Position numbers and translations under genes: made by a program. The notes below the pieces were generated by a model. That model was given only the letters and a program-made list of their open reading frames with translations, had not been told where the DNA came from and searched no databases. 64,000 nt of DNA, taken from NCBI GenBank assembly GCA_903824675.1, contig CAIJXV010000006.1, positions 46,695 to 110,694 on the forward strand, read 5' to 3'. Of this stretch, positions 15,775 through 50,613 are shown one piece after another. The stretch comes from an uncultured bacterium. Lineage in GTDB: Bacteria > Verrucomicrobiota > Kiritimatiellia > CAIKKV01 > CAIJXV01. The first letter of the stretch is position 1. Each line of letters opens with the position of its first letter.

Positions 15775-16308
15775 TTGCTCTGTGAGTGTTATTTTTATGG
15801 GGGTGCCGTGTCGAATATTTCAATTTCTATTTCCCTGATAGAGGATCTTAGTCAGGCATTGCAGGGAGGGGTGCTTGCATCTGCGCCCGCAATTCGGCAA
15901 GTGGCCTCGGCTGAAAGGCGCTGGCGACCTGATTTTGGCGATATTTTCTGGGGAGTATTGGCACGGTTCAATCGTCATCAGAAACACTACGGGATGGTTG
16001 CGGACGATCATCTGGAATGCCCGCCAGTCCGGGTTCCTGTCCAGGGCGAACGTCCGGCTGTGGTCTTCGCTCCCATCACTTCGCTTCGGAATTCCAATCC
16101 CAAAACGATGGTTTTGCCTCCCGGCACCTTGCCGGCTAAAAAAACCGGTAAAAACACCCATGCCGAGGTCAATTCCTATCTCCTTCTGGCCTTGCGCATG
16201 CTCGTGGGTGTGAAAACCGTTACCTCGCAATTCGAACGGGTACGGCGGTTGCCCGATAATTGCATACAAGATGCGCGCCGTGTTCTCAAACGGGATACCC
16301 TCAAATGA
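15775..16308 (+). CDS. Possible small leading ORF of the island operon (hypothetical)
   Basis: Its TGA stop overlaps the ATG at 16305 of the next gene in an ATGA arrangement, suggesting translational coupling. No recognisable motif and the start is uncertain. It could be non-coding leader sequence. Confidence 0.25.
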   Translation: MLCECYFYGGAVSNISISISLIEDLSQALQGGVLASAPAIRQVASAERRWRPDFGDIFWGVLARFNRHQKHYGMVADDHLECPPVRVPVQGERPAVVFAPITSLRNSNPKTMVLPPGTLPAKKTGKNTHAEVNSYLLLALRMLVGVKTVTSQFERVRRLPDNCIQDARRVLKRDTLK

Positions 16309-17399
16309 CTCAGTCTGACGTCGAAACATCCCGGTCTCTGCCGATACGTGCTTGGTTAGAACGACTTATTGACCACGGCGAGGTTGATGAGGTCTTTTAT
16401 GGAGTTTTGATCGAACAGGTTGGGTATATGACCCGGACAACGGCTAGACATATCCGGACAGAAACCACTGAAGATCTGGTTTCGCCGGAAGATTTGGCCG
16501 GCGATTTCCTGCTTCACTTAAAAGCGGAAAACAAGCGCGAAATTCAAACTTTGTCCGGGCTAAAAAGGGAGTTCTCCAAGTTTTTGACCGACCGGAACGA
16601 TCCCGAATCGAAGGAGCTTTGGGAGATCATCAGCGATGCTTTGCACCAGGGAGGGCGTGAAGGGTGGGCTCGGCGCTTGGATGACTTGCATAGTGAAAAG
16701 AATCATAACCAGGCCGTTTGGACATCGGCTTTGCCGGGATGTGATCAAAAAACGTTGGATTTGGCCCAATTCGAACAGAGGGCAAAAAAGATTCCCTGCT
16801 TTTATCCCGGCCGGACAGCGGGACGAATTCTCCCTCCGTCTGATGCGGTTGAATTGATAAGGCGCCTTTTGAAAGAAGCCCAAGTTCCGATTGTATTTAG
16901 CATTCTCTTTAACGAAGCCCGACGCCATGTAGTATTTGGACTCAGATGGGCGGAGGAACTTGGGGAGGAAAGTGAGGCCGAAGATGGCGAAAAACCTCAA
17001 ATCCAACATGCAGATCGAAGTTGGGAGGTGGTGCAATGGGCCAGGGAAGAATCGGCGGAAAGGGGTGATCGGATTTGGTGTGCCATCCAAGCCCTGAAAA
17101 CTGAAAAAGTGCTTTGCCTTTATATACTTCCCAAGCATTTTCTGGGACAGAAACCGACTTTGTCCGGTATGGGCGATTTCCGCCGGACCAGTGAAAATAG
17201 TCTAGAAATCATGTCGATTCTTGCGCAAGAGCTTAAAGTGGAACGACTTAAATCTGATGCGGCACATCAACGGCCTGATGTTATTGACGAGCAAGACGAT
17301 GATTTTATCAAAGCGTGGACGGTAATGATTCACTTTGTAGCCGAACGGCTTTTGGTGAAATGTTCGGAAAAAGGGTTCAACCCGGCCTTATCATCATAA
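16260..17399 (+). CDS. Hypothetical protein (gene A of island operon); acidic patches, no recognisable domain
   Basis: Long ORF of intermediate GC. An alternative start at 16305 (MTQSDVETS) is coupled to the upstream ORF. Glu/Asp-rich segments EEESEAEDGE and DEQDDD. Confidence 0.6.
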   Translation: MHTRCAPCSQTGYPQMTQSDVETSRSLPIRAWLERLIDHGEVDEVFYGVLIEQVGYMTRTTARHIRTETTEDLVSPEDLAGDFLLHLKAENKREIQTLSGLKREFSKFLTDRNDPESKELWEIISDALHQGGREGWARRLDDLHSEKNHNQAVWTSALPGCDQKTLDLAQFEQRAKKIPCFYPGRTAGRILPPSDAVELIRRLLKEAQVPIVFSILFNEARRHVVFGLRWAEELGEESEAEDGEKPQIQHADRSWEVVQWAREESAERGDRIWCAIQALKTEKVLCLYILPKHFLGQKPTLSGMGDFRRTSENSLEIMSILAQELKVERLKSDAAHQRPDVIDEQDDDFIKAWTVMIHFVAERLLVKCSEKGFNPALSS

Positions 17400-17413
17400 C
17401 GGGGGGATTTGAC

Positions 17414-18343
17414 GTGAAAAGTCAGCCTATTCGGCAATTAGAAGGATTATTGAACAGGGTATTGCCGTCCAAAGGCACTCTGGAATCTGTCGAAAACATA
17501 CAAAACATTGGTCCCGGACAAATGTGGTCGACGAAAGCCATCTTGGATTATCCGATTCATTTTGGGGAGCATGAACTGTTTTGGGTCCTGGTAGTTCAAT
17601 CCCGAGTAATGACGCTGAATAAAGAAAGGGTCCATTTGGTTGCCCCACTTTTATCCGATCCGCATCTGGCGGGACCAGAGGATATCATTTTGCCGAAAGA
17701 AATCATGGGGCATCGGGTGGCATTGGCGTGGGGCAGTCGGATAACGGTATTGGAGAAAAGTCTGGACCGGTGTGAGGGTAAACTCCCTAAAAAGTGGTGC
17801 GATGTTGTGGCGCAACTATCCGCAAATGTGGATTTTCATGTTCTCCGGACCTCCGGCATTGAAATGGGATTTGATTATCTGGACAACCATGATATCCGAT
17901 TTGCCTATCATGAGAACTTGGTGGACCGATTGAGTTACCTGCAATCGCCAGTTATACAGGTTGTCTGGCATGAACAAGCGGATGTGATCCGCATGGACAA
18001 ATGGTTCTCCCGAATAGAGCGGGCGAAATGCCAGTCCTTGGCTGCGGCGACGGGAAGTGCTTTCGAAGAAAGTCTCTATTACCGGGTAGTCGGCAAAAAA
18101 CTGGTCATCAAGGTTGTGCTGGCAAGCGACTGGACCCACGTTCAACTGTTGATCCTGAATGAGAAGGGGGAACTCGCCCCTGAACTGGATGGGTGCCAAG
18201 TGGTCAATACGGAAGGCAAGGCTGTCGGAAAGCCCATCAATGATGCGCAGGTATTAATCGATCTAAACGAAATGCGGTGGGGATGGAGTCTGGTGGACAA
18301 AGATGAGACGAGCCGTAAAATCGAGTATCTGCCAAGCCCATGA
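17414..18343 (+). CDS. Hypothetical protein (gene B of island operon)
   Basis: GTG at 17414 preceded by a GGGGGG SD 7 nt upstream; the track's earlier ATG at 17315 would overlap gene A. The stop TGA overlaps the ATG of gene C (ATGA). Confidence 0.55.
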   Translation: MKSQPIRQLEGLLNRVLPSKGTLESVENIQNIGPGQMWSTKAILDYPIHFGEHELFWVLVVQSRVMTLNKERVHLVAPLLSDPHLAGPEDIILPKEIMGHRVALAWGSRITVLEKSLDRCEGKLPKKWCDVVAQLSANVDFHVLRTSGIEMGFDYLDNHDIRFAYHENLVDRLSYLQSPVIQVVWHEQADVIRMDKWFSRIERAKCQSLAAATGSAFEESLYYRVVGKKLVIKVVLASDWTHVQLLILNEKGELAPELDGCQVVNTEGKAVGKPINDAQVLIDLNEMRWGWSLVDKDETSRKIEYLPSP

Positions 18344-20400
18344 AATTCCCTCCCTTCAGTTATGCCGCTTTACACGAAGAATTACGACTCCACCCTGACT
18401 CCGTATCCGTTTTTACGACAATGGAACTGAAGCACTTGACGCGGATTCCCCCTATCGATCATTCACTTGCCGAGGTGCTAACCGCCGAGGCCATCTATCG
18501 GGAATCAATCAGTCGGTTCTCGGGTGAGTTTATGAGCGAGATCGAGCGTTTGTCGTGCGTGGATGATTATCAACGCATTAAAACAGCCTGGGGTGTAAAA
18601 GGCGAACCCAAATTGGAACATTTCGGGGACTGTCTGCGGGGCCTGGTGTCGGATCCGGTCGCACAGAGAGCCGGAGAACGCCTAGCCACCTTTTGGATGG
18701 CCGACGGGTTGATTCCCGTAGTTTGTAAGCGAGCCGGTGCTTGCGAAGCAATCCCCATCCCGTTTTGTTTACGGTTTGAGACAAGTGTGCACCCGGGAGC
18801 GATTGATTTGGCGGAATGTCCGATTCCGAAATGGGAGCAGGGAGTCCGGGTTTTACGCAAAGAACTGAAGGAACCGGGATTGGTCATTCAAGTATTGCAT
18901 GCGTTGGGACCGCGCGTGAACAACTTGCATGGAAACAGCTTCCAGTTACCGGTTTGTCTGGCGTATGCCCAGAAAAAGGGACGGGTGTCCGGTCGGGAAG
19001 TATTTCACTTTTTGGCCACTGGGGCGGTAAGTGCCGGGTGTATTCGCAAGGTCGACGCACTGGATGAAAAGTTGATCTTGGCGCGGAAACTGGGGCTTGT
19101 CTTTGTGGGTCCGGGGCTGGCGGAGGGCGAGGGCTTGTTCCCGATACAATCTGGGGCTCCATTGATTGCCGTTTGGTCCGCTTTAGGACAAAACGCATTG
19201 AGCGTTGGGCGCGTCAGGATTACGGGGCCCGCGTTAATGGACCTGATCCGGTGTTTGAGGGATGATTTGCATAATGGTGCGGTTTCATTGAAGGACGCAT
19301 CCCGAAAATGGGCTGTTTATACCCGGTATCTGAGCAAACTGGAGGCGGATTCGCCCTACCGCCAGGAAGCTCAACTGGAGCTGGTGCTTTTGAAAGGGGT
19401 AATTCAAACCCATTCAGGAAGTGCGTCCAAAGCTGTTCGCAGCCTGGCAAAGGCGTTTAAAACTGCGATCACATCAGGTGTTGATAATTTAAGCCTGATC
19501 AAGTTGATGGCCCATCAGATTGTCGCCTTAACCGACATCGGTCGATTTGAAGCAGCTGAGGTTTGGGGTTGTCGCGCCCGCCGAGAGTTGGGAAAAAAAT
19601 TCCGAGGGAAGGCGGAGGACCGTATCCGAGCGAAAATGACGCTAAATGGCGTATTGGGAGGGCAGGTGTTTCTGCAAAAAGGCTTACTGAAGTCTGAATA
19701 TGCGTCCCAAAGCCGAGTAATGTTGGTAAAGGCGCTGGAAGATGCTTGTCACCTACGGGAAACCCGAGAAATTCTGCGGGACAGGGTGCAACTCTATTTA
19801 TGGGAAGCTCTTTATAGGCCGGCCGATGCCCTATTGAATTATAGGGGGGTGGAGCAAGATTTATTAAAAGTGACTCCTGACGACCGATGGATGGCGCATC
19901 AATATCTGAAACGGCATCGCTGGCTGGCGGCCTATCGCCTGATTTTAAGCGGACTGAAAACGGAAGGACAACCTGAAGAATGGGATCTTCCGGAACCTAT
20001 GGTGGGGCCAGCCGGTTGGATTCGAGCGACGGCCTTGAAATATAGAGCCACTTGGCGAGCACGGTTGGGCGACTATGTCGGGGCCAAGACCGATTTTGAT
20101 GCGAGTCTTGGGCCTTGGACGCACATGATCGGCAAAAGGCGAATCATCATTTGCCGGGAGCCCTTGATTAGGTTCATTTCAGGCACCATTGCACATGAAG
20201 CGTGTCGATCCTTATCCGACTCAAATGCCAGGGCGAGCCGAGAATACCGAGATATTGCCGACATGCTATTCGAAGGGTGCATTCCAGCCCGACTAAAGGG
20301 ACCATTTTCGGCTCGACAATGGCAGGTAATGAATGCAAAAGAGTGGGTAAATCGGTCGCAGCCTGTTCGGCCGGATTTGCGCTGCCAAATAGTCTATTGA
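18340..20400 (+). CDS. Protein with Lon-like (S16) Ser-Lys protease domain, no ATPase motif, long helical C-terminal region
   Basis: Residues ~198-255, HGNSFQLPVCLAYA...GREVFHFLATGAVSAGCIRKVDALDEKLILARKLGLVFVGP, align with the Lon proteolytic core DGPSAG...[36 protein letters not shown]. Ser200 is at nt 18937-18939 and Lys244 at nt 19069-19071. No Walker A in the protein. 686 aa. Confidence 0.6.
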   Translation: MKFPPFSYAALHEELRLHPDSVSVFTTMELKHLTRIPPIDHSLAEVLTAEAIYRESISRFSGEFMSEIERLSCVDDYQRIKTAWGVKGEPKLEHFGDCLRGLVSDPVAQRAGERLATFWMADGLIPVVCKRAGACEAIPIPFCLRFETSVHPGAIDLAECPIPKWEQGVRVLRKELKEPGLVIQVLHALGPRVNNLHGNSFQLPVCLAYAQKKGRVSGREVFHFLATGAVSAGCIRKVDALDEKLILARKLGLVFVGPGLAEGEGLFPIQSGAPLIAVWSALGQNALSVGRVRITGPALMDLIRCLRDDLHNGAVSLKDASRKWAVYTRYLSKLEADSPYRQEAQLELVLLKGVIQTHSGSASKAVRSLAKAFKTAITSGVDNLSLIKLMAHQIVALTDIGRFEAAEVWGCRARRELGKKFRGKAEDRIRAKMTLNGVLGGQVFLQKGLLKSEYASQSRVMLVKALEDACHLRETREILRDRVQLYLWEALYRPADALLNYRGVEQDLLKVTPDDRWMAHQYLKRHRWLAAYRLILSGLKTEGQPEEWDLPEPMVGPAGWIRATALKYRATWRARLGDYVGAKTDFDASLGPWTHMIGKRRIIICREPLIRFISGTIAHEACRSLSDSNARASREYRDIADMLFEGCIPARLKGPFSARQWQVMNAKEWVNRSQPVRPDLRCQIVY

Positions 20401-20409
20401 GGTTCAGCG

Positions 20410-21255
20410 ATGAAAGATCAGTCCGATCCCAAGGTGCTGGTGCCCGAAAGTTTTCGATTAGCATCAGACTACATGTATGGAATTGAGATTGCGTTGCGAG
20501 AATTGATCATCGAAGTAATGGATGCAGATCCAAGCCATGGTCGACTATGGTATCTAAAGTTGGAACCTGCACGTGACGTAGTGAAAAAGATGCGAGAAGC
20601 GAGAACCGATCAACTTCGCAACCGGCATATCCAATTCATCGCCTATCACCCCATCTATTACACGGATTTTCCCGATTTGCGAAAATTGTTTGAAAGTAGA
20701 CTTGTCTGGCCTCGATTTGAGCGATATTTATGGGGAAAAGAAGCATTTCTTGGCGACTTGGAAAAACTTGAACCAATTCGGAATTCGATAGCCCACCATC
20801 GTCCGGTTCCACATTCAACGGTCGAAATTATTGCTCCTGTATGGAATATGCTAAAAAATCGACTGGGTGAAGAGAAGATAAAACTCTGGGTACAGAGGCC
20901 GACGGTTGTTGAAAATATTAGGGAGAAATTAAACCACATCAACCAAGAAATTCACAAAACATGGGAAGTGATCTCCCAGAAAGAGTGCCAACTGCCGGAT
21001 ATATTAGAAGTCCGAGACTGTGTAGCTGCTTGGTGGTTCACACGGGAGTACTTGCTGCCAGATAAGGAAGAAATACCGGAATTTGATAGTATTTTAAAAT
21101 ATTTCAATAAATTGTCGGAATATAATCAAAACATTCCCTTCCATGAACGAGGATACGTCATCAAGATTCGCAAATGGGTCGGCGAAAACAAAATTGACGA
21201 ACTTGTTACTAATGCCGAATCCGTAATGGTGGAGGCCCTTAATGGCTGGGGGTGA
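20410..21255 (+). CDS. HEPN-domain protein, Abi_2 (AbiD/AbiF)- or Swt1-like
   Basis: LEPIRNSIAHHRPV contains the Rx4HH HEPN RNase motif (R124, H129, H130; nt 20779-20799). 281 aa, similar in size to Abi_2 proteins. AGG-rich SD upstream. Confidence 0.6.
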   Translation: MKDQSDPKVLVPESFRLASDYMYGIEIALRELIIEVMDADPSHGRLWYLKLEPARDVVKKMREARTDQLRNRHIQFIAYHPIYYTDFPDLRKLFESRLVWPRFERYLWGKEAFLGDLEKLEPIRNSIAHHRPVPHSTVEIIAPVWNMLKNRLGEEKIKLWVQRPTVVENIREKLNHINQEIHKTWEVISQKECQLPDILEVRDCVAAWWFTREYLLPDKEEIPEFDSILKYFNKLSEYNQNIPFHERGYVIKIRKWVGENKIDELVTNAESVMVEALNGWG

Positions 21256-21258
21256 AAG

Positions 21259-24048
21259 ATGAATATTTCGGACTTTGAAAAAAACAATAATACAATAGAA
21301 AATGATTTAACAAGGGCAATTAAAGAAACCCCTAACCCCTTTAATCCACATTCGCCAGTTGAAGATCCCGAATTACTAGTCGGCAGGCAAGCGTTATTGC
21401 TGGAAATTGACATGCAGTTGAAAGAGTGTCATGAAACAAGACGTTTTCGACATGTCATTGTTTCAGGGGAGCGCGGATCAGGTAAAACCAGTCTTATGCA
21501 GGTGATTGCGCAAAAGTATTATAAGAAACAGTGTTTATGCCAAATTAAAATTGAATCCGACACGAGCCTGCGCGATCCGCTTTTGTTTCGGCAGATATTT
21601 CGCAAATTAATTGAAAGTCTTTTTAGTCAGACGTCGGAACGTTCGCGCGATATATCATCAATATTTCGCGGAAAGACTGATAAAGTATTTCAAAGAACCA
21701 TTAGTGATCTCGAAAAATATAGTCCCGGAATAAAGGACCAGGTTTTTGCCTTTCCAGAAATATACTTCGAAACCAAGGACATACAGGCAGATGCAATGTT
21801 TGAGATTAAAAAAGCCCTTAAAGCGGATATTGCCATTATCGCTGATAACTTGAATGTCCCACTTTTTATTCTGGTAGACGCTTTTGGAGGGGCCGAAACA
21901 AATGCTGAATTTATTTGCATTCTAGTGTCCCTATTTGAAAAGGTCAATAACGTTTGCCTTTTGACTATTGCTTCTGCTGAAACGATTCAGGTGTTGCACA
22001 ATAAATCAGAAACGCTCATTCGAACCGCAAAGAAATATGACATGCCTCCCTTGACGGCTGATGATATTCGCGCCTTATTTGTAAAAACTTTACTTCAAAA
22101 AGATTTATTTAGAGAATCCATTCAAAAAGCTTTGGCGACGACGAAATGGGATGTCGCCAGTTGTGTGGAATTTTCGCCGTTTTGGGGTGAGTTCAAGTAT
22201 CAAATAAAACCCGAATTAATCGCGCAATGTGCGCAGGGCAACCCATATCTTACAATGATGATGCTTTATGTTGCCTTCAAGAAAGCGAAGGCGACAGATA
22301 ACAAGGTAATTGCTTTTGATGCTGAGGTCTTAAAGGATGTTTTTGTTGAATTGCAATACGATCAGAAATATCAACCTTATCAAAAAACCTTTACGTGGAT
22401 CAAATCATTGGGTTCTCGTAAGCGACTTCTTTTAAGTTTTTTGCTGCAAATTAGGACGCCCATTAAACTCGAAGATCTTTTTGCATTTGAACTTTTGATT
22501 CACCATGAGGATTTTGTCGTCAGGAACGAACTTCTTACGGCATACAGAGATTTCTGCCGACAAGGTGCTATACGCGAGAATACGGACGGCACATTTAGTG
22601 TGATGCTGAATAGCATTGAATGCGCCTATTTGACCCTATTTCAAGCTAACGACTTGAATGATTTTCGATTTTATAAAAACTTGACTGATTTTGTTTCCTC
22701 GGAATTACTTGGCCAACTACTTCGCCCTAAGTCTTCGTCGCTGATAAGTCGAAGAACCCAGTTTGAGGAATTCATCGAATTGCTAGAACGTGAAGCCCAA
22801 TTTCACCCTGACTTTATCCCCCTCATTAGTAAAGTTAGATATAAAGATGCTCTAGATGTGCTGTCTATGGATATAGATCAATCTGGGAATTCCAATATTC
22901 CTTTGCACACTGCTTCTGGCCGTTGTGCAATCTTGGCGTTCCCTAGGTGGACAGAATCAGTAAACCATCCCAAATCAAATTATAAAGATATACCCTTTGC
23001 TCAGGCTCTCTCTCAGATTCGAAATTCGGCAGACTGCAAAAACTTAATGCGCAGTAATCTTTGGGGTTTAAAATGGTGCATCGAGTATGAACGCCTGGAA
23101 GATGAAGCTGGGGTTCGTTCGGAAATCCCGTGGCTTCTCCCTTTTTTGTATTTATCATTGCAGATGCCTCGCATTCCAGTTCTGACAATTAAAGCGAGCT
23201 TTTCAGAGCGTCGCATTGAAATCGTCGCGAGTTGGATGGCGGCTTTACAAGGTGAAGAATCAATAGAGGATTCCATTCAGCCTCGCCTTGAGCAGCTTAA
23301 GGCTAATGCACTGTTAGCCAGTGTGGAGTTGTCTTGCTCATGGGAATATTATGAACCATTGTATCTACATGATCTACCGGATTCATTTTATGAGATGTCA
23401 CTCTATCACCCAGAGTATGAGAAGTACCACAATAATTCAAAGCGGGAAGGCCCTTTTGTCAAGGAACAACTATACCATTTCGGGGCACTCCTGGCTGATT
23501 CGTGGGTTCATATCTGCGCACAACGAAAGTTTCGTGAGATAGAGATCTTCTTGACGCACTACTCAAGACTTATAATTCTTCCGGACGTCCAAAGATATCT
23601 TAGCTTTCAAGAATATGATAAGTCTTTGCTCACCTGTCAGATCGAGTTCTCATTAATTGTTGCGGGTCGGTATGACTTGGCGACTGAACTTATTTCTGTC
23701 TTGTTGCCACATTTCAAGGATCCCGTGTTTTTGGCTCTAACACATTATGGGCTAGCATTAATTGCATTGTGCCAAAGCAAATTCGATGTCGTAGTTTCGG
23801 AATTAGCTGAAATCCGCTGTCTTATTTCTTTGCACGCTAATGATTTTAAGCGATTCACTGAGGCCGTTTCAGCTCATGACTTCGCCAAATATTCGTCCGC
23901 CAAAGAAGGTTGTTTCAGCACATATTTCTTTATTCCTCTTCCTAAGGTCGAAAACGGCGAGATCGTTTTTGCTATTTCTAATGCCGCGGACTTCACGGCC
24001 GTTTGTGATTCGGTCGATACGGCAGTTAGAAGGAAGCCAGCTCGATAA
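21259..24048 (+). CDS. STAND / AAA_16-type P-loop NTPase with ~650 aa helical C-terminal (sensor-like) region
   Basis: ELLVGRQALLLEIDMQL...HVIVSGERGSGKTSLMQ is an AAA_16-style N-terminus with Walker A at aa 70-77. The Walker B-like motif is VPLFILVDAFGG. 929 aa, conspicuously AT-rich coding sequence. Confidence 0.7.
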   Translation: MNISDFEKNNNTIENDLTRAIKETPNPFNPHSPVEDPELLVGRQALLLEIDMQLKECHETRRFRHVIVSGERGSGKTSLMQVIAQKYYKKQCLCQIKIESDTSLRDPLLFRQIFRKLIESLFSQTSERSRDISSIFRGKTDKVFQRTISDLEKYSPGIKDQVFAFPEIYFETKDIQADAMFEIKKALKADIAIIADNLNVPLFILVDAFGGAETNAEFICILVSLFEKVNNVCLLTIASAETIQVLHNKSETLIRTAKKYDMPPLTADDIRALFVKTLLQKDLFRESIQKALATTKWDVASCVEFSPFWGEFKYQIKPELIAQCAQGNPYLTMMMLYVAFKKAKATDNKVIAFDAEVLKDVFVELQYDQKYQPYQKTFTWIKSLGSRKRLLLSFLLQIRTPIKLEDLFAFELLIHHEDFVVRNELLTAYRDFCRQGAIRENTDGTFSVMLNSIECAYLTLFQANDLNDFRFYKNLTDFVSSELLGQLLRPKSSSLISRRTQFEEFIELLEREAQFHPDFIPLISKVRYKDALDVLSMDIDQSGNSNIPLHTASGRCAILAFPRWTESVNHPKSNYKDIPFAQALSQIRNSADCKNLMRSNLWGLKWCIEYERLEDEAGVRSEIPWLLPFLYLSLQMPRIPVLTIKASFSERRIEIVASWMAALQGEESIEDSIQPRLEQLKANALLASVELSCSWEYYEPLYLHDLPDSFYEMSLYHPEYEKYHNNSKREGPFVKEQLYHFGALLADSWVHICAQRKFREIEIFLTHYSRLIILPDVQRYLSFQEYDKSLLTCQIEFSLIVAGRYDLATELISVLLPHFKDPVFLALTHYGLALIALCQSKFDVVVSELAEIRCLISLHANDFKRFTEAVSAHDFAKYSSAKEGCFSTYFFIPLPKVENGEIVFAISNAADFTAVCDSVDTAVRRKPAR

Positions 24049-24197
24049 GGGGCTCCGTATTGGCCTCGCTGGCCCTTTGATTGTTCGGGATATGATTCTC
24101 CTTCTCCGCCAACTTTCTTGAATGGTGCTAATGTGATATACACAATTAGCATACATGGAGACGGCGACAGTAAACCCATTGTGCCACACTGATGGAA

Positions 24198-26336
24198 TTA
24201 CGAATAATTGAATGGCAATAAACGGGCGATGTCGCTGGCCGACGAAATATCCGAACCTTTGAGGATATCTGAAAACTGGTCTATCCCGCCCCATGCTTTC
24301 AGGTACGATGCAAATGGCGTGGACTGTGCGATGAGGCTTTCTGTCCAAGACAGGCATTCCTGGAAGTGTTTTGCATGCGATTGATTGTCTCCGCGAATCT
24401 TGTTGATGACGGTGATCAATCCCAATTGGGATAAACCAATGGTTTGCACCGTAAAGTGTAACTTCTTGGATATGCTGACACCTTGAGCCAAGATCTGAGT
24501 AGCAGATTCATATTGTTGGGCTTGTAAAAACAAATACCCGATCCACTTGCAGAGATGTTCGCATGGATGATCTTCGAATATGCGGGTCTTCCACGTATCC
24601 CAAATGGCTGCCGTCATGTTTTTGTCAATAGGGATGACGTCAGCGGCCACTGCGTCGCAATGGGCCGAAGCGATTCGAAGATAATTGATCGCATTGAATG
24701 GGGAGAGATTCGGGGTTGTCATGATTTCAGGTAGTCTCGAAACTAAATCTGCCGGAGTTGCAACAGGATTATTCCCTGAATGCCTGTTCATTTCAGCGCA
24801 GGCGCGGTTGAGATCGTCCGATTGCCAGGCCAGGGTTGCCAGATAGTTTGCCGACATTGAATAATATGAAATACCAGAGGGGAAATGTTTGATGCTTTTT
24901 TCGAAATATGCGCGAGCCATGTCTCCCCAGGCGGGATCCGTCCGCGCTAGAAAAGCGCAGGCTTGGCCCAGTGATCCTTGCATTTGGCCCAGAAGTTCAT
25001 CAGGTTCATCCGCTGGCACTTCGGCTTCGCGGCGGTCGACATCATCGCTGAACGTGGTTAGCACCTCTTCGAATCGGTAATCATTGAAAAGATAATTGAG
25101 ATTTCGGTTTCGGATTTCCAGTAAACGTTCTTTTCGCGTGTTGTGAGTTCCGGGTAGTAAATTCATCTGTTGTTGAAGCAATGTTGTCAGGCGGGTTTCA
25201 ATGTCTTTTTGCGGATTAACGTTGCCTTGGTGATTATGGCAGGCGGCAAGATCACTCAGACCATCTGCCAGATAATTTGCCCAAACACGTTGATTTTCGA
25301 TGGAACCCTTCGCCCTCAGGTTGGCCTCGGCGATGTCGGTCAATTGATGAAGGAGTTTCTTTGCACCATCCAGATTTCCGGGTTCACGAGTGCGGCTAGC
25401 GATGAGAAAGCGGGTATAGGCGAGTAATGCGGATGTTTCGCGCATGAGTATCTGACTGTCGTCTTCGCGTTTTAGAGCCTGGATCAAGCGGGAATAATCG
25501 GGATGCCCTTCTGTAGTCGGTAAATAACGCCGCAAATAATCGGCGGTCGTTGCGTACTGTTTGTTCTCCAAAAGGCGCGCGACTTCGTGATCGTAATGCC
25601 GGCGATAGTCGCCAAACATGAATTCATCGGGATTAGTTCGCTCGACTATTGTCCCGTCTGGTGTTTTTTTGCCGCCGCGCAGAAGACAGCATACGAAGTC
25701 CGCTGCGATGAGGCCTGGATTCCGATCCCCAATACCCCACCGTAATAATAATCGATTTTCGGCATTCAATCTTCTGGTGAATGAGATGGCTGGCGAGTCG
25801 CCAGAAAGGATCTGGTCTTTGATATAGTCCAATAGGCGAGGCATGTAGTCGGGATAGTTTGAGTTGATGGTTTCTGCGATGGTTCGTTGTGCAACCATTA
25901 TTTCCACAGAATCAGCATTTGGGCATCGCGTGAAGAGTGTTTCCAGAGCCTTTCGCGTAGCGGCAACCAAATTCAAGACATAAGTGGCCTGCGGAGAAGT
26001 CTCAAATCGCTTGCCGGTATTTCTTGATGCGAAAAAAAAAGCACTTGAACCGCAGATGCCTGTAAAAACGGCATTTGTGAAGGCTTCGAGATCCCGCCTT
26101 GACACTGGGCCGGCGACTCGGAGGTGGCCTTCTAACAACTTGCCGCAATGATAATGATCGGGATAGATGAATTTAATGCGGGAATTTGAGTTAAAAGCTG
26201 AAAGTTGGTCGACATGCAATGCCTTCCACGCCTGATCATCAAGGGTGCTACAGATGCCCCCTACAAGAGAAGATGCCTTTCGAGTGATCCCTTCATCAAA
26301 GGAGCCGCTCTCGTCTATGAAAATGAAATATTTCAC
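24198..26336 (-). CDS. DUF3800 N-terminal domain protein with long TPR-like helical C-terminus
   Basis: The N-terminus MKYFIFIDESGSFD matches the characteristic DUF3800 start (M.Y..IDESG). 712 aa, AT-richer than flanking genes, convergent with the STAND gene. Confidence 0.55.
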   Translation of the reverse strand: MKYFIFIDESGSFDEGITRKASSLVGGICSTLDDQAWKALHVDQLSAFNSNSRIKFIYPDHYHCGKLLEGHLRVAGPVSRRDLEAFTNAVFTGICGSSAFFFASRNTGKRFETSPQATYVLNLVAATRKALETLFTRCPNADSVEIMVAQRTIAETINSNYPDYMPRLLDYIKDQILSGDSPAISFTRRLNAENRLLLRWGIGDRNPGLIAADFVCCLLRGGKKTPDGTIVERTNPDEFMFGDYRRHYDHEVARLLENKQYATTADYLRRYLPTTEGHPDYSRLIQALKREDDSQILMRETSALLAYTRFLIASRTREPGNLDGAKKLLHQLTDIAEANLRAKGSIENQRVWANYLADGLSDLAACHNHQGNVNPQKDIETRLTTLLQQQMNLLPGTHNTRKERLLEIRNRNLNYLFNDYRFEEVLTTFSDDVDRREAEVPADEPDELLGQMQGSLGQACAFLARTDPAWGDMARAYFEKSIKHFPSGISYYSMSANYLATLAWQSDDLNRACAEMNRHSGNNPVATPADLVSRLPEIMTTPNLSPFNAINYLRIASAHCDAVAADVIPIDKNMTAAIWDTWKTRIFEDHPCEHLCKWIGYLFLQAQQYESATQILAQGVSISKKLHFTVQTIGLSQLGLITVINKIRGDNQSHAKHFQECLSWTESLIAQSTPFASYLKAWGGIDQFSDILKGSDISSASDIARLLPFNYS

Positions 26337-26609
26337 GGATTAAACACCTTATATCTTTGTTAGTTACTGATATTGCGGAATTCCCCTTCCCAGCGCAAGT
26401 TCGTTCTTTGAACCCTCTATACAACGGGACGAATTTCCAAGGAGGATTATTTGGGCAATTTCATCGGAAAAGTTGTTAGACGTCGGCTTCCAGTAATTTG
26501 CAACGTCTGCGATTGAATTCTAGCTACAAATGAAGATTTACCTGATGAAAACGATTTTAGGCCTTGGTTTCTGGTTCGGGTTGGTGGCGTTGTTGGTTTG
26601 GGAGGAACT

Positions 26610-28862
26610 GTGAAAAACGTATCTTCATATCGAGAAATACTGATCAATAAGACATGCCTGACCCGCGACCAATCGGCGATGATCGGGGCTTTGTCTCAAT
26701 TTTTTGATTCTGATCAAAGCCGGGTCTTTCTTCTCAAGGGTTATGCCGGAACGGGGAAAACCTATATCCTCCGGCAGATCGCCGAAGCCCTGTCGGTCGC
26801 GAAACTGCCGTTCTGTCTGCTGACCCCCACGGGGCGTGCGGCGCGTATCCTGGGTAAACGCACCGGCTTCCCCGCGCGGACCATTCATAGCCTGATGTAT
26901 GCCATGAACCAGGTACGGGAATATGAAAAAGATGAGGAGCGCTTTCAACTCCACTTCGAATTGTCCGATCCCAGTGGGATCGATAGCCGGATGGTTTTTC
27001 TGGTGGATGAGTCGTCCCTGATTGGCGATCGGGAAGGTGAACAGGAATTCTTGCGGTTTGGGTCGGGTCGCTTGCTCAAGGATTTTATTGATTATACGCG
27101 GGTGGGAGTGTCAGGGCTGGAAACGCGGATCGTATTTGCGGGGGATCCGGCCCAATTGCCGCCGGTGAATGATAACATTTCGCCGGCATTGTCGTCCGAA
27201 TATTTGAAGAAGACGCACAATTTGGTGGCCCAAACAGCGGAATTAACCGAGGTGGTGCGGCAGAAGGGTGGAAGTCCGGTTCTGCGCGTGGCTACGGAAT
27301 TGCGCAATAGTCTAGCGAATGGCCGGGTTAACAAGCTGGCGGTACCGGAGGAACCACCGGCCATCCGGTCAATCCAGCCCGCGGACGCCTCGAAATTGAT
27401 CGCGGAGGCATGTCGGGTGGATGCGATGGCGGAGGAGGTGCTGGTGACCTACAGCAATGAACTGGCGTTGAAATACAACCAGGCGGTGCGCGGTCATCTG
27501 TATGGGAATGAACAGGCTTCGGTACGGGTGGGGGACCGGGTGATGGTGAACACCAACAATCCGTGTTGGGGCCTGATGAACGGTGATTTTGCGGCGTTGC
27601 TAGGTGTCGCGCCTGAGCCCGAGATCCGTCAGGTTGCAGTTCGGGGGCAGGACGTCCAGGCGCTCATCTTCCGACGGGTGACGGCGGGTTGGCTGAATGC
27701 GGAGAACCAGCCGGTGCGACTGGAATGCTTGGTGATGGAAAATCTGCTGGATTCGCGCGAGCGGGATTTGACCCGGCCGGAAATGATGGCGCTCTACGTG
27801 GATTTCAAGAATCGGAATCCAGATCTGAAGCCACACACGCGCGATTTTGAGACGGCGCTACGGGCAGATGAGTATTTCAACGCGTTACGGGTGAAATATG
27901 GTTATGCGGTGACCTGCCACAAGGCGCAGGGTGGGGAGTGGGACCGGGTGATCGTGGACTTTCGGACCGGGGGAGGGTGGTCAAATCCCGCGTATTTTCG
28001 CTGGTGCTATACGGCTATAACGCGGGCCCGGAGTGAATTGCTGACGATCAATGCGCCGCAGTTTGTCCATTCCTGGGTGGGAATTCGGCGGGTGGGGGTG
28101 GGGAAAGGGGAGGGGAAGTTGTTGGTTGCTGCGGTGTTGGTTGATAGCGGGGAGGATGAAGGGATGGAGCGGAAGCCAAAGTGCTCGGTGGATGAAGCGA
28201 GCGGTGAGATCAGTGCGGGAACGCCCGGCTGTACCGGGGAACAACAAGATGAAGACAAGGCCGGCTGGCCGGGGGTCAAGTGGGCAGAGGGACATGAGCC
28301 GTTGAAACTTAAAGCCAATTGCTTTGCGGCGATGTTGCGGGCACAGGGTTTCGAGGTGGGTGTGCTGGAGCATGGCAACTATTTTGAACGGTACACAATT
28401 ATGGACGGCGCGAGACCGATCAAAATCCAGGTCTATTACGATGGAAGGATGCGATTCCGTGTACCCCAGCCGATGCCCCGCGGCAAGGTTTCGGTGGATG
28501 ATCCGGCTTTTAAGAAAATCGCAGCGTTATTCCTGTCGGCGATCCCCGAGGATGGCGGAATGGCTGAGGAAGGGGCCAAACCCCAAGCGGTTGAGTTGCG
28601 GGCAAAACTGGAGGAATTGCGGGCGCAGGGAGTGGATGTGTTGCGGCTGGATAGCGGGGAATATGTGGATCGGGTGACCTTGCGTCGGGAAACGTCGGTG
28701 GCTGAGGTGGATTTTTATCATGATCGCAAAGGGCGTTATACATCCTGGCAGATCATGCCGACCCGCGATCCTGAATTTCGGGGATGGTTGACCGGCCGGA
28801 TCGAGGATTTACTGATGACGCCGGAACAAAGTGCCGTGCAAGGTGTGGATTTACTGGAATGA
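26610..28862 (+). CDS. RecD/TraA-like SF1B DNA helicase (AAA_30 + UvrD_C_2) with ~270 aa C-terminal extension
   Basis: Walker A LLKGYAGTGKTY, Walker B FLVDESSLIG, motif FAGDPAQLPPV, and VTCHKAQGGEWDRVIV. Start uncertain (GTG at 26610 with GGAGG upstream; the track used TTG at 26598). Confidence 0.8.
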   Translation: MKNVSSYREILINKTCLTRDQSAMIGALSQFFDSDQSRVFLLKGYAGTGKTYILRQIAEALSVAKLPFCLLTPTGRAARILGKRTGFPARTIHSLMYAMNQVREYEKDEERFQLHFELSDPSGIDSRMVFLVDESSLIGDREGEQEFLRFGSGRLLKDFIDYTRVGVSGLETRIVFAGDPAQLPPVNDNISPALSSEYLKKTHNLVAQTAELTEVVRQKGGSPVLRVATELRNSLANGRVNKLAVPEEPPAIRSIQPADASKLIAEACRVDAMAEEVLVTYSNELALKYNQAVRGHLYGNEQASVRVGDRVMVNTNNPCWGLMNGDFAALLGVAPEPEIRQVAVRGQDVQALIFRRVTAGWLNAENQPVRLECLVMENLLDSRERDLTRPEMMALYVDFKNRNPDLKPHTRDFETALRADEYFNALRVKYGYAVTCHKAQGGEWDRVIVDFRTGGGWSNPAYFRWCYTAITRARSELLTINAPQFVHSWVGIRRVGVGKGEGKLLVAAVLVDSGEDEGMERKPKCSVDEASGEISAGTPGCTGEQQDEDKAGWPGVKWAEGHEPLKLKANCFAAMLRAQGFEVGVLEHGNYFERYTIMDGARPIKIQVYYDGRMRFRVPQPMPRGKVSVDDPAFKKIAALFLSAIPEDGGMAEEGAKPQAVELRAKLEELRAQGVDVLRLDSGEYVDRVTLRRETSVAEVDFYHDRKGRYTSWQIMPTRDPEFRGWLTGRIEDLLMTPEQSAVQGVDLLE

Positions 28863-28876
28863 CGGGATGATGAGCG

Positions 28877-30802
28877 ATGAACGAGGTAAAAACCATATTT
28901 CAGATGCGCCGTGAGGGACGATTGGCTGAAGCCCTTGAAATGGCTCGAACCTTTTGCGTCGCGAACCCGGCGGATTCCTGGGGTGTGAAGGCGCTGGCCT
29001 GGGTTCTGCGCGACCTTATTCTCGGTTGCCTGAAAGCGAAGGATCGGTCCGGTGCAACGGATTTATATCTGGAATTCGCACAATTACCCATTGGGGAAGA
29101 TGATATCGTCTTGGTCCAGACGGCCGATTGGCTGAAGAGTGCCGTGGACGATCCGGTGCGGCCGCTGTTGGACCAGGCAAAGCAATCTCAGGAAGCGGGC
29201 GATTTGGGTGCAAGTCTCGCGATTCTGCGGGATGTGGTTAGGCAGTATCCGCAATCGGAGCAGGCCCGGTCAGCGTTGGGGTGGGCGATTTACCGGGTCT
29301 TACACGCGATGGGACGGGAAGAGCATCCTGACCGACAGGCGGTTCTATCCTATTTGCGGGAATATCGAGCATTGTTTCCCCAACCCAAACCAGGCACGTT
29401 ACACTCGGCGATTCTGAATGCCGCCACCAAGCTGAGCGATGACTTGCCGCAATTTCCCCGTTTCTTTTTGTGGTGGGGTCCGGATAACTTTCAGACGGAG
29501 GATGCCCGGCCATTTTGCCCAAAGGATTCAGATCAGACATTTCCGAGCCTGGTTGAAAAAACGATCAAGGCGCTGTATCGCACCTGTAAAGGGCTTGAGG
29601 ACCTGGAAGTCGTGGGGCGGTGTGCTGATTTTGTAAAACTCTGGTTGCCGCGGTTTCCTGAGCAAGAATGGTTTGGGTATTATTACGGCCGGATGCTTAT
29701 TTTCGCGGGGCGGCTGGAGGAGGCGCGGGGGTACTTGATGCCGATCATTCGCAAGAAGCAGTCGGAATTCTGGGCTTGGGCGGCACTGGCCGACACCTTT
29801 GGGGAAGCGGCTCATGAAGAGCGGGTGACGTGTCTCTGTCAGGCGGCCCGGTGCCCTATTCATGACGAGTCCTTCAAAGTTGGGGTCCACACGGCGCTGG
29901 CTGAATTGCTGGCCCGGATGAATAAGAAGTCCGAAGCCCGTTGGGAACTCCAGACGGTGGTGAAGATCCGCGCCGAGAAGTGGTGGAAAATAACATCCGA
30001 AATTCAGGCGATGCAGGCAGCTGATTGGGCGGTGGGTGAGCCGGCGGATGACGGGAATCAGTCCTTATACGAGGAGTATGGGGCTCGGGCCTCATCCATT
30101 TTATGCGAAGGGTTGCCGTGGGAAAATGCCATCGTATTGGAAGTGTCAGAGGCCCGACCGTCTGATGGGCCGGAGCGGCGAGCCGTGCCGCCACTGGTGA
30201 TGATTGGATTAGGGAAAGGACCGCGTTTGACGACGCTCCGATTAAAACAGAATTTTTCGAGGGCAACGCGTGACGCACGGGTGGGGATGCCGGTGCGGAT
30301 CCGGCAAGATCAGGCGATGGAACACCCGTCCGTGATGGCGTTCGAATCGCGGGTCGGTACGGATTGGGATCTGCTTCCCGAACGGGCAGGGATCGTATTG
30401 TCGAATTCGGATGAGCGAGGGCTGACGATCATTTATCTCGGAGGCGATGAAGTAGTTTTTCTTTACCATGATCGGCTGCCGGAAGTCCAGGCCTATGAAG
30501 TGGGTGAATTTGTGAAAGTGCGGGTGATTTGGAATGAGCGGTCCGCTCGATTCAAGTGGCTGACCGTGGCTCTGGATTTGACTCCCTCGCCGGTGGCATG
30601 GTGCCGTGAGTTTGCGGACTCGGTTCGCCTGTCGGCCAACGGGGGGTTTGGCTTTGCGGGGGATGTATTTATCCAGCCCGGCTTGGTCAGCGAACAGGGG
30701 GTGACGGATGGATGCCAGGTGCGGGGAAGAGCGATTTTGCGCAAGAAACCGAACCGGGGCGAGTTGGGTTGGCAGGCGGTGACTGTGGCGGTGAAAGCGT
30801 AA
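28877..30802 (+). CDS. Large helical-repeat (TPR-like) protein with C-terminal beta-rich (OB-like?) region, unknown function
   Basis: 641 aa ORF starting 14 nt after the helicase stop. The N-terminal 400 aa are predicted helical repeats. No catalytic motif recognised. Confidence 0.5.
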   Translation: MNEVKTIFQMRREGRLAEALEMARTFCVANPADSWGVKALAWVLRDLILGCLKAKDRSGATDLYLEFAQLPIGEDDIVLVQTADWLKSAVDDPVRPLLDQAKQSQEAGDLGASLAILRDVVRQYPQSEQARSALGWAIYRVLHAMGREEHPDRQAVLSYLREYRALFPQPKPGTLHSAILNAATKLSDDLPQFPRFFLWWGPDNFQTEDARPFCPKDSDQTFPSLVEKTIKALYRTCKGLEDLEVVGRCADFVKLWLPRFPEQEWFGYYYGRMLIFAGRLEEARGYLMPIIRKKQSEFWAWAALADTFGEAAHEERVTCLCQAARCPIHDESFKVGVHTALAELLARMNKKSEARWELQTVVKIRAEKWWKITSEIQAMQAADWAVGEPADDGNQSLYEEYGARASSILCEGLPWENAIVLEVSEARPSDGPERRAVPPLVMIGLGKGPRLTTLRLKQNFSRATRDARVGMPVRIRQDQAMEHPSVMAFESRVGTDWDLLPERAGIVLSNSDERGLTIIYLGGDEVVFLYHDRLPEVQAYEVGEFVKVRVIWNERSARFKWLTVALDLTPSPVAWCREFADSVRLSANGGFGFAGDVFIQPGLVSEQGVTDGCQVRGRAILRKKPNRGELGWQAVTVAVKA

Positions 30803-50538: not shown

Positions 50539-50613
50539 GCGCCCATCGTCTATCGGTCAGGACACTAGGTTTTCATCCTAGTAAGCCGGGTTCGACTCCC
50601 GGTGGGCGCGCCA
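50539..50613 (+). tRNA. tRNA-Glu (anticodon UUC)
   Basis: Cloverleaf: 7-bp acceptor stem GCGCCCA/TGGGCGC, D-arm GTCTATCGGTCAGGACA, anticodon stem CTAGG/CCTAG with loop TTTTCAT (anticodon TTC), T-arm CCGGGTTCGACTCCCGG, and a 3' CCA. Confidence 0.85.

Follow-up and report, generated by a model that had tools for sequence, protein, structure and literature searches.

The window analyzed here, a 64,000-nucleotide stretch of a contig from an uncultured member of the Kiritimatiellia (Verrucomicrobiota), carries at positions 21259 to 24048 a gene that a preliminary description read as a STAND-like NTPase acting with a separately encoded effector. We asked what kind of NTPase this gene encodes, whether the gene preceding it belongs to the same system, and what the two might do together. 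The two genes and the features within them described below lie on the forward strand. The ATPase gene is a single uninterrupted reading frame of 929 codons; its composition would lead one to expect a stop once in ~16 codons, and a stop-free run of this length would arise by chance with a P of ~4e-26, which supports it as a real ORF. Its start codon is preceded by a Shine-Dalgarno-like sequence, GGGGGTGA, and the stop codon of an upstream HEPN gene lies 3 nt before it. The public annotation (P0001) gives a protein of 850 aa starting at M80. The 929-aa start is favored over that annotation by a conserved N-terminal family motif, NPFNP...LLVGRQ (aa 26 to 44; 21334 to 21390), in which N26, P27, and G42 do not vary and R43 almost never does (alignment A1). 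A scan for promoters and terminators returned sites no more numerous than in shuffled sequence. Among window ORFs of at least 200 aa, the ATPase gene has the lowest GC content (0.412, against 0.553 for the whole window), in agreement with the preliminary description, which had called it the most AT-rich gene in the window, and the HEPN gene is second lowest at ~0.43. The pair thus stands at 0.41 to 0.43, below both its flanking genes (0.49 to 0.53) and the window as a whole (0.55).

The sequence places the product among sensor-type NTPases of the AAA_16 type, which are ORC/Cdc6-STAND-like. The Walker A motif GERGSGKT (aa 70 to 77; 21466 to 21489) has G70, G75, and K76 invariant across 92 sequences and T77 nearly invariant. 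In the Walker B motif FILVDAF (aa 203 to 209; 21865 to 21885), D207 aligns with the invariant aspartate of 91 relatives, and the catalytic glutamate that is near-invariant in the family is replaced by Ala208 (DE to DA). Only ~60 aa, including the NPF...VGR motif, precede the NTPase, so that both motifs and the placement of the ATPase at the extreme N terminus are as first described. A helical lid follows (aa 267 to 346; 22057 to 22296), with the GxP motif QGNPY at aa 326 to 330, built on an invariant P329 and nearly invariant G327 and Y330; this region is helical in an AlphaFold model, with a pLDDT of 84 to 91. The model, which is based on a multiple-sequence alignment and has an overall pLDDT of 76 and a pTM of 0.72, further predicts a winged-helix-like domain at aa ~355 to 450 (22321 to 22608; a helix-helix-beta-hairpin module with pLDDT of 86 to 97), a helical linker with low-confidence, window-specific insertions at aa 513 to 581 and 614 to 633, and a small alpha/beta domain at aa 639 to 698 (23173 to 23352; pLDDT of ~88 to 96) with a weak collinear match to positions 503 to 560 of the family profile introduced below.

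The C-terminal part had been described as about 650 aa of helical repeats, a claim that did not hold: after the lid, winged helix, linker with insertions, and alpha/beta domain there remain about three TPR-like hairpins. These fall in a helical hairpin region at aa 731 to 871 (23449 to 23871), followed in the model by a beta-hairpin and a helix at the C-terminal end. Positions 594 to 690 of the family profile match consensus TPR proteins (E of 2e-30), and positions 614 to 691 align to window aa 780 to 857, the only stretch homologous to the ~3 TPR units of the family. No TPR or SLR model matched the window ATPase in a Pfam scan. The TPR-like region is a putative sensor or interaction surface. 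PDB sequence searches with the ATPase and with its partner returned nothing significant.

We then compared this architecture with known NTPase classes. Leipe, Koonin, and Aravind reportedly defined STAND NTPases in 2004 by a P-loop domain with Walker A and B motifs, a helical lid with a GxP motif, and a winged helix ahead of a repeat or sensor region. The window protein has the Walker motifs, the GxP lid, a winged helix, and TPR-like hairpins, the last two in the predicted structure. Its best fold matches are replication initiators, with NLRs, Avs5, CED-4, and RdrA within 1 to 2 Z units; by the fold matches of this model, ORC/Cdc6 and STAND are not separable. It is nevertheless very improbable that the gene encodes an Orc1/Cdc6-type initiator or a MalT/LuxR-type transcription regulator instead of an immune NTPase. 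A best homology to Orc1/Cdc6 or to such regulators had been named in the preliminary description as the case against itself. The window protein reaches 13.6 bits with TIGR02928 against a cutoff of 181.3, and family members score 22 to 23.5 bits with the ORC/Cdc6 model, whose cutoff is ~181. Orc1/Cdc6 proteins have ~400 aa, whereas this protein carries a 450-aa C-terminal extension with TPR. An HTH domain (GerE/LuxR or BTAD) was sought in the window protein with Pfam and NCBIfam and not found, which speaks against a regulator of the MalT/LuxR or SARP type. The narrow Z-score distance to NLRs, Avs5, CED-4, and RdrA also speaks against an initiator or regulator, as do the consistent coupling of the gene to effectors of the nuclease, protease, membrane, or glycosyltransferase kind and its occurrence at non-syntenic sites in more than 10 bacterial phyla.

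Pfam models for NACHT, NB-ARC, and nSTAND did not reach threshold with the window ATPase, and PADLOC Avs models gave no match at an E of ≤0.1. Avs identity is ruled out by this lack of a PADLOC match, by the absence of an N-terminal effector fusion (the NTPase starts at aa ~25), and by the presence of only ~3 TPR-like units. Pfam PF10923 (BrxD) does score above its threshold (23.8 versus 22.2) while covering only profile positions 26 to 125 of 414; the PADLOC BrxD model did not match the window protein, the NCBIfam BrxD model scored 16.4 against 350 on a family member, and no BREX genes occur among the seven neighboring proteins scanned (16260 to 30802). The partial PF10923 match, the low NCBIfam score, and the lack of BREX neighbors speak against BrxC/BrxD identity. 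The DefensePredictor systems DS-8, DS-11, and DS-41 were rejected on NCBIfam scores of 12 to 19 bits, with cutoffs of 260 to 790. Across PADLOC v2 and NCBIfam, no ATPase model was reached by the window ATPase or by the family members tested. What stands of the STAND-like assignment is an N-terminal P-loop NTPase of AAA_16/STAND-like type with a GxP lid, a winged helix, and a noncatalytic C terminus; the repeat solenoid and the Avs affiliation do not.

A word-indexed homology search with the window ATPase returned only the protein itself. An exhaustive phmmer search recovered 160 relatives, nearly all of 730 to 790 aa, aligned over window aa ~25 to 460. The relatives form an AAA_16-plus-TPR family of ~745 aa, whose profile matches the window protein with an E of 1.2e-42 and is collinear to the C terminus. 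Conservation in the family is uneven, with a majority-residue fraction of 0.57 in the N-terminal 430 aa versus 0.31 in the C-terminal half.

The upstream gene (20410 to 21255) encodes a protein of 281 aa with an N-terminal Swt1-like HEPN RNase domain and a C-terminal adaptor domain. An HMM built from 66 partner homologues matches it over aa 8 to 274 (E of 7.9e-60), and PADLOC PDC-M34B matches its HEPN domain (E of 3e-10); a Pfam scan of the window partner gave only a sub-threshold Abi_2 match, and most of the partner homologues found carry Pfam PF18731 (HEPN_Swt1). The catalytic Rx4H motif, RNSIAH (aa 124 to 129; 20779 to 20796), aligns with the family consensus EPIRNKIAHNR, and since both the arginine and the histidine are retained, the partner is predicted to be an active RNase. 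The adaptor (aa ~150 to 281; 20857 to 21252), is a conserved domain of ~120 aa in family partners. Its W, Y, G, and W columns are invariant in alignment A3, and the window partner shows the landmarks WWF (aa 208 to 210) and ERGYVIKIRKW (aa 246 to 256). A profile search with A3 against a database of 5.8 billion proteins gave no match at an E of ≤0.001, while full-length partners were found in a separate search. A homotypic copy of the adaptor was sought in 107 family ATPases and the window protein, with a best E of 1.3 and an hhalign probability of 0.2%. The proposal of a separately encoded HEPN effector upstream is supported: the partner ends 3 nt before the ATPase ORF and has an intact Rx4H motif, and the pairing is conserved elsewhere.

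This pairing of separate HEPN and ATPase genes recurs in dozens of unrelated genomic contexts, and family ATPases nearly always stand immediately behind a HEPN gene. Partner homologues lie 2 to 15 nt upstream of ATPases of the same family in unrelated neighborhoods, and one such pair interrupts a series of genes for purine biosynthesis. Among 185,579 species genomes scanned, ~30 loci have a HEPN-family ORF immediately before the ATPase, including nearly all of the 34 query-closest loci whose contig extends upstream. Metagenomes were scanned with an adaptor pattern taken from a narrower alignment (A5), alignment A4 being too diverse to serve. All 57 loci found in this way carry HEPN plus adaptor, with the ATPase ORF next in line at 53; the other 4 contigs end within ~300 nt past the adaptor ORF. 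A single cassette locus was found among 2.9 million viral contigs, which suggests that the cassette is mostly cellular. The family spans more than 10 bacterial phyla at non-syntenic sites and extends to some archaea, with occurrences in Cyanobacteria, Acidobacteriota, Chloroflexota, Desulfobacterota, Rhizobiales, Bacteroidota, Actinomycetota, and Archaeoglobaceae. Carriers of canonical cassettes include Calothrix NIES-4105, Ensifer adhaerens SD006, Rhizobium sp. Root1203, and Nostoc. With its ATPase and partner profile matches (E of 1.2e-42 and 7.9e-60, respectively) and its gap of 3 nt, the window pair fits this cassette family.

The HEPN protein is not the only partner of the family ATPases. 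At one locus (L008), a NERD-plus-kinase protein lies directly upstream of the ATPase and ends in the adaptor (aa 770 to 867), and at another (L023), a Lon-like protein in the same position also ends in it (aa 412 to 530). Two further loci (L025 and L035) have a partner with two transmembrane segments (2-TM) that ends in a weak trace of the adaptor core motif, while actinomycete versions carry a GT4 glycosyltransferase (GT4-conflict domain) fused C-terminally to the ATPase. Given these non-HEPN partners and the fused GT4, the family looks like a sensor NTPase with interchangeable, separately encoded effectors.

The compactness of the cassette, its mobility, its translational coupling, and its presence in unrelated contexts, including the purine-biosynthesis run, would also suit an addiction module resembling a toxin-antitoxin system, in which a constitutively toxic HEPN RNase would be neutralized by the ATPase-TPR protein as its antitoxin or chaperone, the whole being a selfish element that does not sense phage directly. 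Pairs of a HEPN toxin and a protein antitoxin are well established (PMC3710099), and the toxin-first gene order with a 3-nt gap is in keeping with such a module. However, an NTPase of 745 to 929 aa that combines a lid and a winged helix with a variable TPR end is over-elaborate for an antitoxin, and its pairing with kinase/NERD, Lon-like, 2-TM, and fused GT4 effectors is typical of sensor-effector defense. We regard the addiction module as decidedly unlikely, and the two models overlap in practice.

The window ATPase itself is highly diverged. It retains 31 of 75 near-invariant family residues, compared with a minimum of 58 of 75 among 91 relatives, the motifs counted including Walker B DE, LRN, TGT, RQFKK, and YEIQLICH. 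The changes include E208A, R223V, N224S, G238A/T239S, Q256T/F257A, and E331L/C336L/H337Y, and sensor-1-region residues of the family are missing. In 1.84 billion representative proteins, none besides its own entry, P0001, is more than ~25% identical to it. The loss of the Walker B glutamate and of other family-invariant residues suggests that the protein probably binds nucleotide and hydrolyzes it poorly or not at all, and the window copy may act differently from the rest of the family, or not at all. It could be a decaying, nonfunctional relic, an AT-rich, drifted ATPase whose catalytic residues and signaling are gone, as the low count of retained residues, the low-confidence insertions specific to the window, and the lack of any close relative would lead one to expect. 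Yet the frame of 929 codons is intact against a chance of ~4e-26; the P-loop, the Walker B aspartate, the GxP motif, and the N-terminal motif are all retained; the model is confident across most domains; and the catalytic motif and adaptor of the partner are intact. We consider decay unlikely.

We instead favor, as the probable explanation, that 20410 to 21255 and 21259 to 24048 form one horizontally acquired two-gene conflict cassette, antiviral and of the abortive-infection type, in a defense island. The neighboring genes include a TOTE/PDC-M16 system. Three upstream genes (16260 to 20400) were provisionally rejected as parts of the cassette because their GC content differs (0.49 to 0.53) and they have no homologues in 82 family loci. 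One finding qualifies this rejection: the 686-aa upstream protein and the Lon-like partner at L023 have a weak Lon-like segment in common.

HEPN RNases work as dimers, and nucleotide binding makes STAND/AAA+ switches oligomerize (PMC3710099, PMC7159879). In the proposed cassette, the second gene would encode the sensor or switch NTPase and the first its Swt1-like HEPN RNase effector, whose C-terminal adaptor may dock onto the NTPase, as gene adjacency and domain conservation suggest. At rest, the effector would be kept in an inactive or monomeric state by the NTPase. The variable C-terminal half, possibly together with the winged helix, would recognize a trigger derived from the phage, and this recognition would lead to nucleotide-dependent oligomerization of the NTPase. 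HEPN domains could then meet as an active dimer and cleave RNA, and growth of the infected cell would stop.

Comparison with known systems shows shared parts in different arrangements. In Avs1-21 and bNACHT the effector is fused N-terminally, whereas here it is a separate gene with its own adaptor domain; the Avs and bNACHT sensor has at least 400 aa, compared with ~3 TPR-like units in the window family, whose Walker B is DE. Swt1-like HEPN–STAND-ATPase–TPR (+S1) fusions such as Npun_F6454 (PMC3710099) have the same three blocks as the window cassette, and both are predicted defense RNases. The Npun_F6454 type is a single polypeptide, in contrast to the separate HEPN with its C-terminal adaptor in the window, and the ATPases are likened by block composition. 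The nSTAND2 systems (PMC7159879, PMC8195603), like the window family, are mobile two-gene STAND-like operons with HEPN or GT4 in the effector slot, but both of their proteins are STAND NTPases, with the effector fused to an inactive STAND, while the partner in the window has no NTPase. The EAD principle (PMC7159879, PMC8195603), whereby small nonenzymatic adaptors link separate effectors to a core NTPase, would also apply to the window family; EADs occur as two homotypic copies, on core and on effector, whereas the adaptor here is detected on the effector only. An EAD-like trait is nonetheless present, since one adaptor is found on HEPN, NERD-plus-kinase, and Lon-like partners, with a weak core motif on 2-TM partners. 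RADAR RdrA, BREX BrxC/BrxD, and ORC/Cdc6 differ from the window ATPase in C-terminal architecture, and neither BREX nor RADAR partner genes accompany it. PADLOC PDC-M34 covers part of the cassette: PDC-M34B matches the HEPN partner at an E of 1e-20 to 1e-25 in typical members (3e-10 in the window). This match is limited to the HEPN domain and excludes the adaptor, and no PADLOC model, PDC-M34A included, matches the ATPases tested.

More tentatively, and as a possibility to which we give limited credence, the family may be a distinct class of immune module in which an NTPase at the ORC/Cdc6-STAND boundary engages interchangeable separate effectors (HEPN RNase, NERD nuclease plus kinase, Lon-like protease, or 2-TM protein) through a heterotypic docking domain at the C terminus of the effector. 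The window copy would then be a natural hydrolysis-dead variant, serving as a receptor that is either ATP-locked or independent of nucleotide and that might sense nucleic acid with its winged helix.

Should the cassette be a defense system, it would add a widespread module, one without prior characterization in the libraries and papers that were searched. The split between a sensor NTPase and a killing effector, linked by an adaptor of ~120 aa, makes activation in trans by NLR-like switches testable, and the adaptor motif WWFD..YL...RGSGHKIE.W provides a sequence handle for new effectors. The window copy carries a naturally occurring Walker B Glu-to-Ala change, and its comparison with canonical members could show whether signaling needs hydrolysis.

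The HEPN protein encoded directly 5′ of the ATPase gene (20410 to 21255, 281 aa) carries an intact Rx4H motif (RNSIAH, aa 124 to 129). About 70 homologs of this protein were found, each roughly 266 aa long and most of them matching Pfam HEPN_Swt1. The three that were traced to their contigs each lie 2 to 15 nt 5′ of a 741- to 753-aa ATPase of the same family as the window ATPase (100%, 74%, and 49% identity to protein records P0149, P0191, and P0088, respectively), in neighborhoods unrelated to one another. A scan of 185,579 species, with one genome each, returned 77 family loci in Cyanobacteria, Acidobacteriota, Chloroflexota, Desulfobacterota, Rhizobiales, Bacteroidota, many Actinomycetota, and an Archaeoglobaceae archaeon, while 2.9 million viral contigs yielded only one. 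At ~30 of these 77 loci, a HEPN-family ORF lies immediately upstream of the ATPase; this applies to nearly all of the 34 loci ranked nearest the query for which the contig continues upstream. A metagenome scan seeded with the C-terminal motif of the partner alone (WWFD.xYL) found 57 loci, all with HEPN plus the conserved C-terminal domain, here called the adaptor; the ATPase ORF follows in 53, and the other 4 contigs stop ~300 nt or less past the adaptor ORF. This recurrence bears out the preliminary description, in which the effector was a separate upstream HEPN gene. Since the GC content of the window pair (0.41 to 0.43) differs from that on both flanks (0.49 to 0.53) and its flanking genes do not recur at other family loci, the unit consists of two genes. 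The pair is also mobile. At L002:8001-11067, a family locus within a run of purine biosynthesis genes, it sits between GATase_5 (purQ-like) and SAICAR synthetase, in what looks like a clean two-gene insertion illustrating cassette mobility.

The adaptor, which spans the last 100 to 120 aa of the partner with the HEPN domain, is shared with other effectors; in its consensus, WWFD..YLG...I..FF...EY..LPR.RGSGHKIE.W, four columns (W, Y, G, and W) never vary. Two non-HEPN proteins encoded directly 5′ of family ATPases likewise end in it: a NERD plus protein kinase partner of 856 to 869 aa (L008:212-2782; adaptor at aa 770 to 867) and a partner of 527 to 535 aa with a weak Lon-protease-like Ser/Lys segment (L023:4410-5993; adaptor at aa 412 to 530). 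In two Flavobacteriia (L025:5411-5980 and L035:5404-6000), the partners are small proteins of 189 to 198 aa with two hydrophobic transmembrane helices, which have only a weak copy of the adaptor core motif, RxRGxxH (E value, 0.02 to 0.05). In many actinomycetes (L039, L041, L042, L047, L050, L052 to L055, and others), a HEPN gene is missing upstream and the ATPase is ~1,150 to 1,200 aa long; the one checked, P0224, has a GT4-conflict glycosyltransferase at its C terminus.

The ATPase ORF called at 21259 to 24048 (plus strand) is genuine: a single open frame encodes 929 aa, and since a stop is expected every ~16 codons at this base composition, the probability of 929 open codons by chance is ~4e-26. 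Its start lies 3 nt beyond the stop of the HEPN gene and is preceded by the Shine-Dalgarno-like GGGGGTGA. Further support for it comes from a conserved motif near the N terminus, NPF...VGR, of which N26, P27, and G42 are invariant in the family. One public record, P0001 (850 aa), begins at M80 and therefore lacks the Walker A P-loop (21259 to 21498 encode aa 1 to 80); another, P0002, is the 929-aa form, which is correct given that aa 26 to 78 are conserved across the family. As had been proposed, this is the most AT-rich gene among window ORFs of at least 200 aa (GC, 0.412 versus 0.553 for the whole window), and the HEPN gene ranks second (0.432).

A word-indexed homology search with the window ATPase returned only itself. 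Searching 1.84 billion representative proteins exhaustively with phmmer returned 160 matches at an E value of ≤1e-3 (best, 1.5e-17), nearly all 730 to 790 aa long and aligned to query aa 25 to 460. These relatives have subthreshold AAA_16 matches and C-terminal TPRs. A profile of 107 relatives matches the window ATPase at an E value of 1.2e-42 over profile positions 4 to 452, with weak collinear continuations beyond; the C-terminal half is more variable (majority-residue fraction of 0.31 versus 0.57 in the N-terminal 430 aa). The window ATPase is a highly divergent outlier, keeping 31 of the 75 family positions conserved at ≥90%, while the other 91 members keep 58 to 75 (median, 72). Walker A (GERGSGKT, aa 70 to 77) and Walker B (FILVDAF, aa 203 to 209) are present as first noted, and D207 occupies the alignment column of the Walker B aspartate that all 91 relatives share. 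The GxP and N-terminal motifs are also kept. Lost are the Walker B glutamate (family hhhhDE becomes FILVDA), R223, N224, Q256, F257, and the lid residues E331, C336, and H337, and the TGT ending strand 4 is ASA (G238A, T239S). The most economical reading of these residues is that the protein binds nucleotide but may hydrolyze it poorly. Alternatively, the window copy could be a relic in decay; however, the long frame is intact, the fold is predicted with confidence, and the HEPN partner is intact.

Without an alignment, the AlphaFold pLDDT was 35; a 92-sequence alignment raised it to 76 (pTM, 0.72), and the domain order was taken from the latter model. An NTPase base (aa ~60 to 265) is followed by a helical lid with the GxP motif G327-N-P329 (invariant at P329), a winged-helix-like module (aa ~355 to 450), a helical linker, two low-confidence insertions specific to the window protein (aa 513 to 581 and 614 to 633), a compact alpha/beta domain (aa 639 to 698), helical hairpins (aa 731 to 871), and a terminal beta-hairpin plus helix. 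The ~650 aa of helical repeats originally described after the NTPase could not be confirmed in these mixed domains, since homology to the family's approximately three genuine TPR units is limited to aa 780 to 857 and no TPR or SLR model matched the window protein.

Fold evidence cannot separate a STAND from an initiator clade. Behind the best matches, to replication initiators, closely trail RdrA (Z score, 13.2), TnsC (13.1), plant NLRs (12.6 to 12.1), Avs5 and CED-4 (12.1), MalT (10.9), and BrxC (10.5). Among Pfam models, AAA_16 scored 31.3 bits (cutoff, 32.6), NACHT scored 23.2 (26.7), and BrxC_BrxD scored 23.8 (22.2), the last over just 100 of 414 model positions. The testable STAND hallmarks are present (a GR motif before the P-loop, a GxP lid, and a winged helix and then repeats). 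"STAND-like" is acceptable as a description, but tests for Avs, NACHT, or NB-ARC membership were negative. So were those for ORC/Cdc6, BREX, and MalT. ORC/Cdc6 models reached 13.6 to 23.5 bits against the 181 needed, and no HTH domain is present, which argues against the MalT/LuxR or Orc1/Cdc6 identity named as what would refute a defense STAND.

The HEPN-ATPase pair lies in a defense island, as indicated by a two-gene TOTE conflict system downstream: a RecD/Pif1-like helicase with a TBP-TOTE domain (26598 to 28862, plus strand; PADLOC PDC-M16A, E value of 9e-197) and a DUF7017/TPR protein with S1CSD-TOTE-2 (28877 to 30802, plus strand; PDC-M16B, 7e-103). Between the pair and this system, convergent with the ATPase gene, a 712-aa ORF (24198 to 26336, minus strand; GC of 0.487, under the window mean) had no significant match in Pfam, PADLOC, NCBIfam, or PDB sequences and may be another uncharacterized island gene. 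Upstream, three abutting or overlapping ORFs of 379, 342, and 686 aa (16260 to 20400, plus strand) have no Pfam match; their GC content (0.49 to 0.53) and absence at other family loci point to a module of their own. The 686-aa ORF stops 9 nt 5′ of the HEPN gene, and its product contains a Ser/Lys segment with weak similarity to Lon S16 protease (aa 195 to 258; PADLOC SAVED-Lon/CARF-Lon, E value of 2e-3), a segment that resembles the Lon-like partner in L023 (BLASTP E value, 4e-5). The sole tRNA in the window, tRNA-Glu (TTC; 50539 to 50613, plus strand), is distant from the island, with no evident link to it.

In 2013, Swt1-like HEPN domains were catalogued as fusions with STAND-ATPase plus TPR (with or without S1) (PMC3710099), and a 2021 study described two-gene nSTAND2 systems whose effectors are GT4 or HEPN (PMC8195603). 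In the passages of a 2026 Avs-family survey (PMC13581612) that matched term searches, the split arrangement is not described. PADLOC models did not match the ATPase of the window or those of the family that were tested, PDC-M34B matched only the HEPN domain of the partner, and no DefensePredictor DS system in NCBIfam gave a match. The adaptor coupling resembles the effector-associated-domain principle (Kaur et al. 2020, PMC7159879) but lacks its homotypic pair of copies, since no adaptor copy was detectable in family ATPases.

We rate the module as most likely a sensor NTPase of NLR/ORC-like type whose effector is encoded in trans and linked to it through the adaptor. The NTPase would serve as sensor and switch, with the variable C-terminal half, perhaps aided by the winged helix, recognizing an infection cue. 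Nucleotide-dependent oligomerization would in turn bring the HEPN domains, docked through their adaptors, together as active dimers, which would cleave RNA and arrest the cell. The overall logic of such a module is anticipated by specialists; an adaptor with swappable effectors and a natural Walker B variant make it concrete and open to testing.
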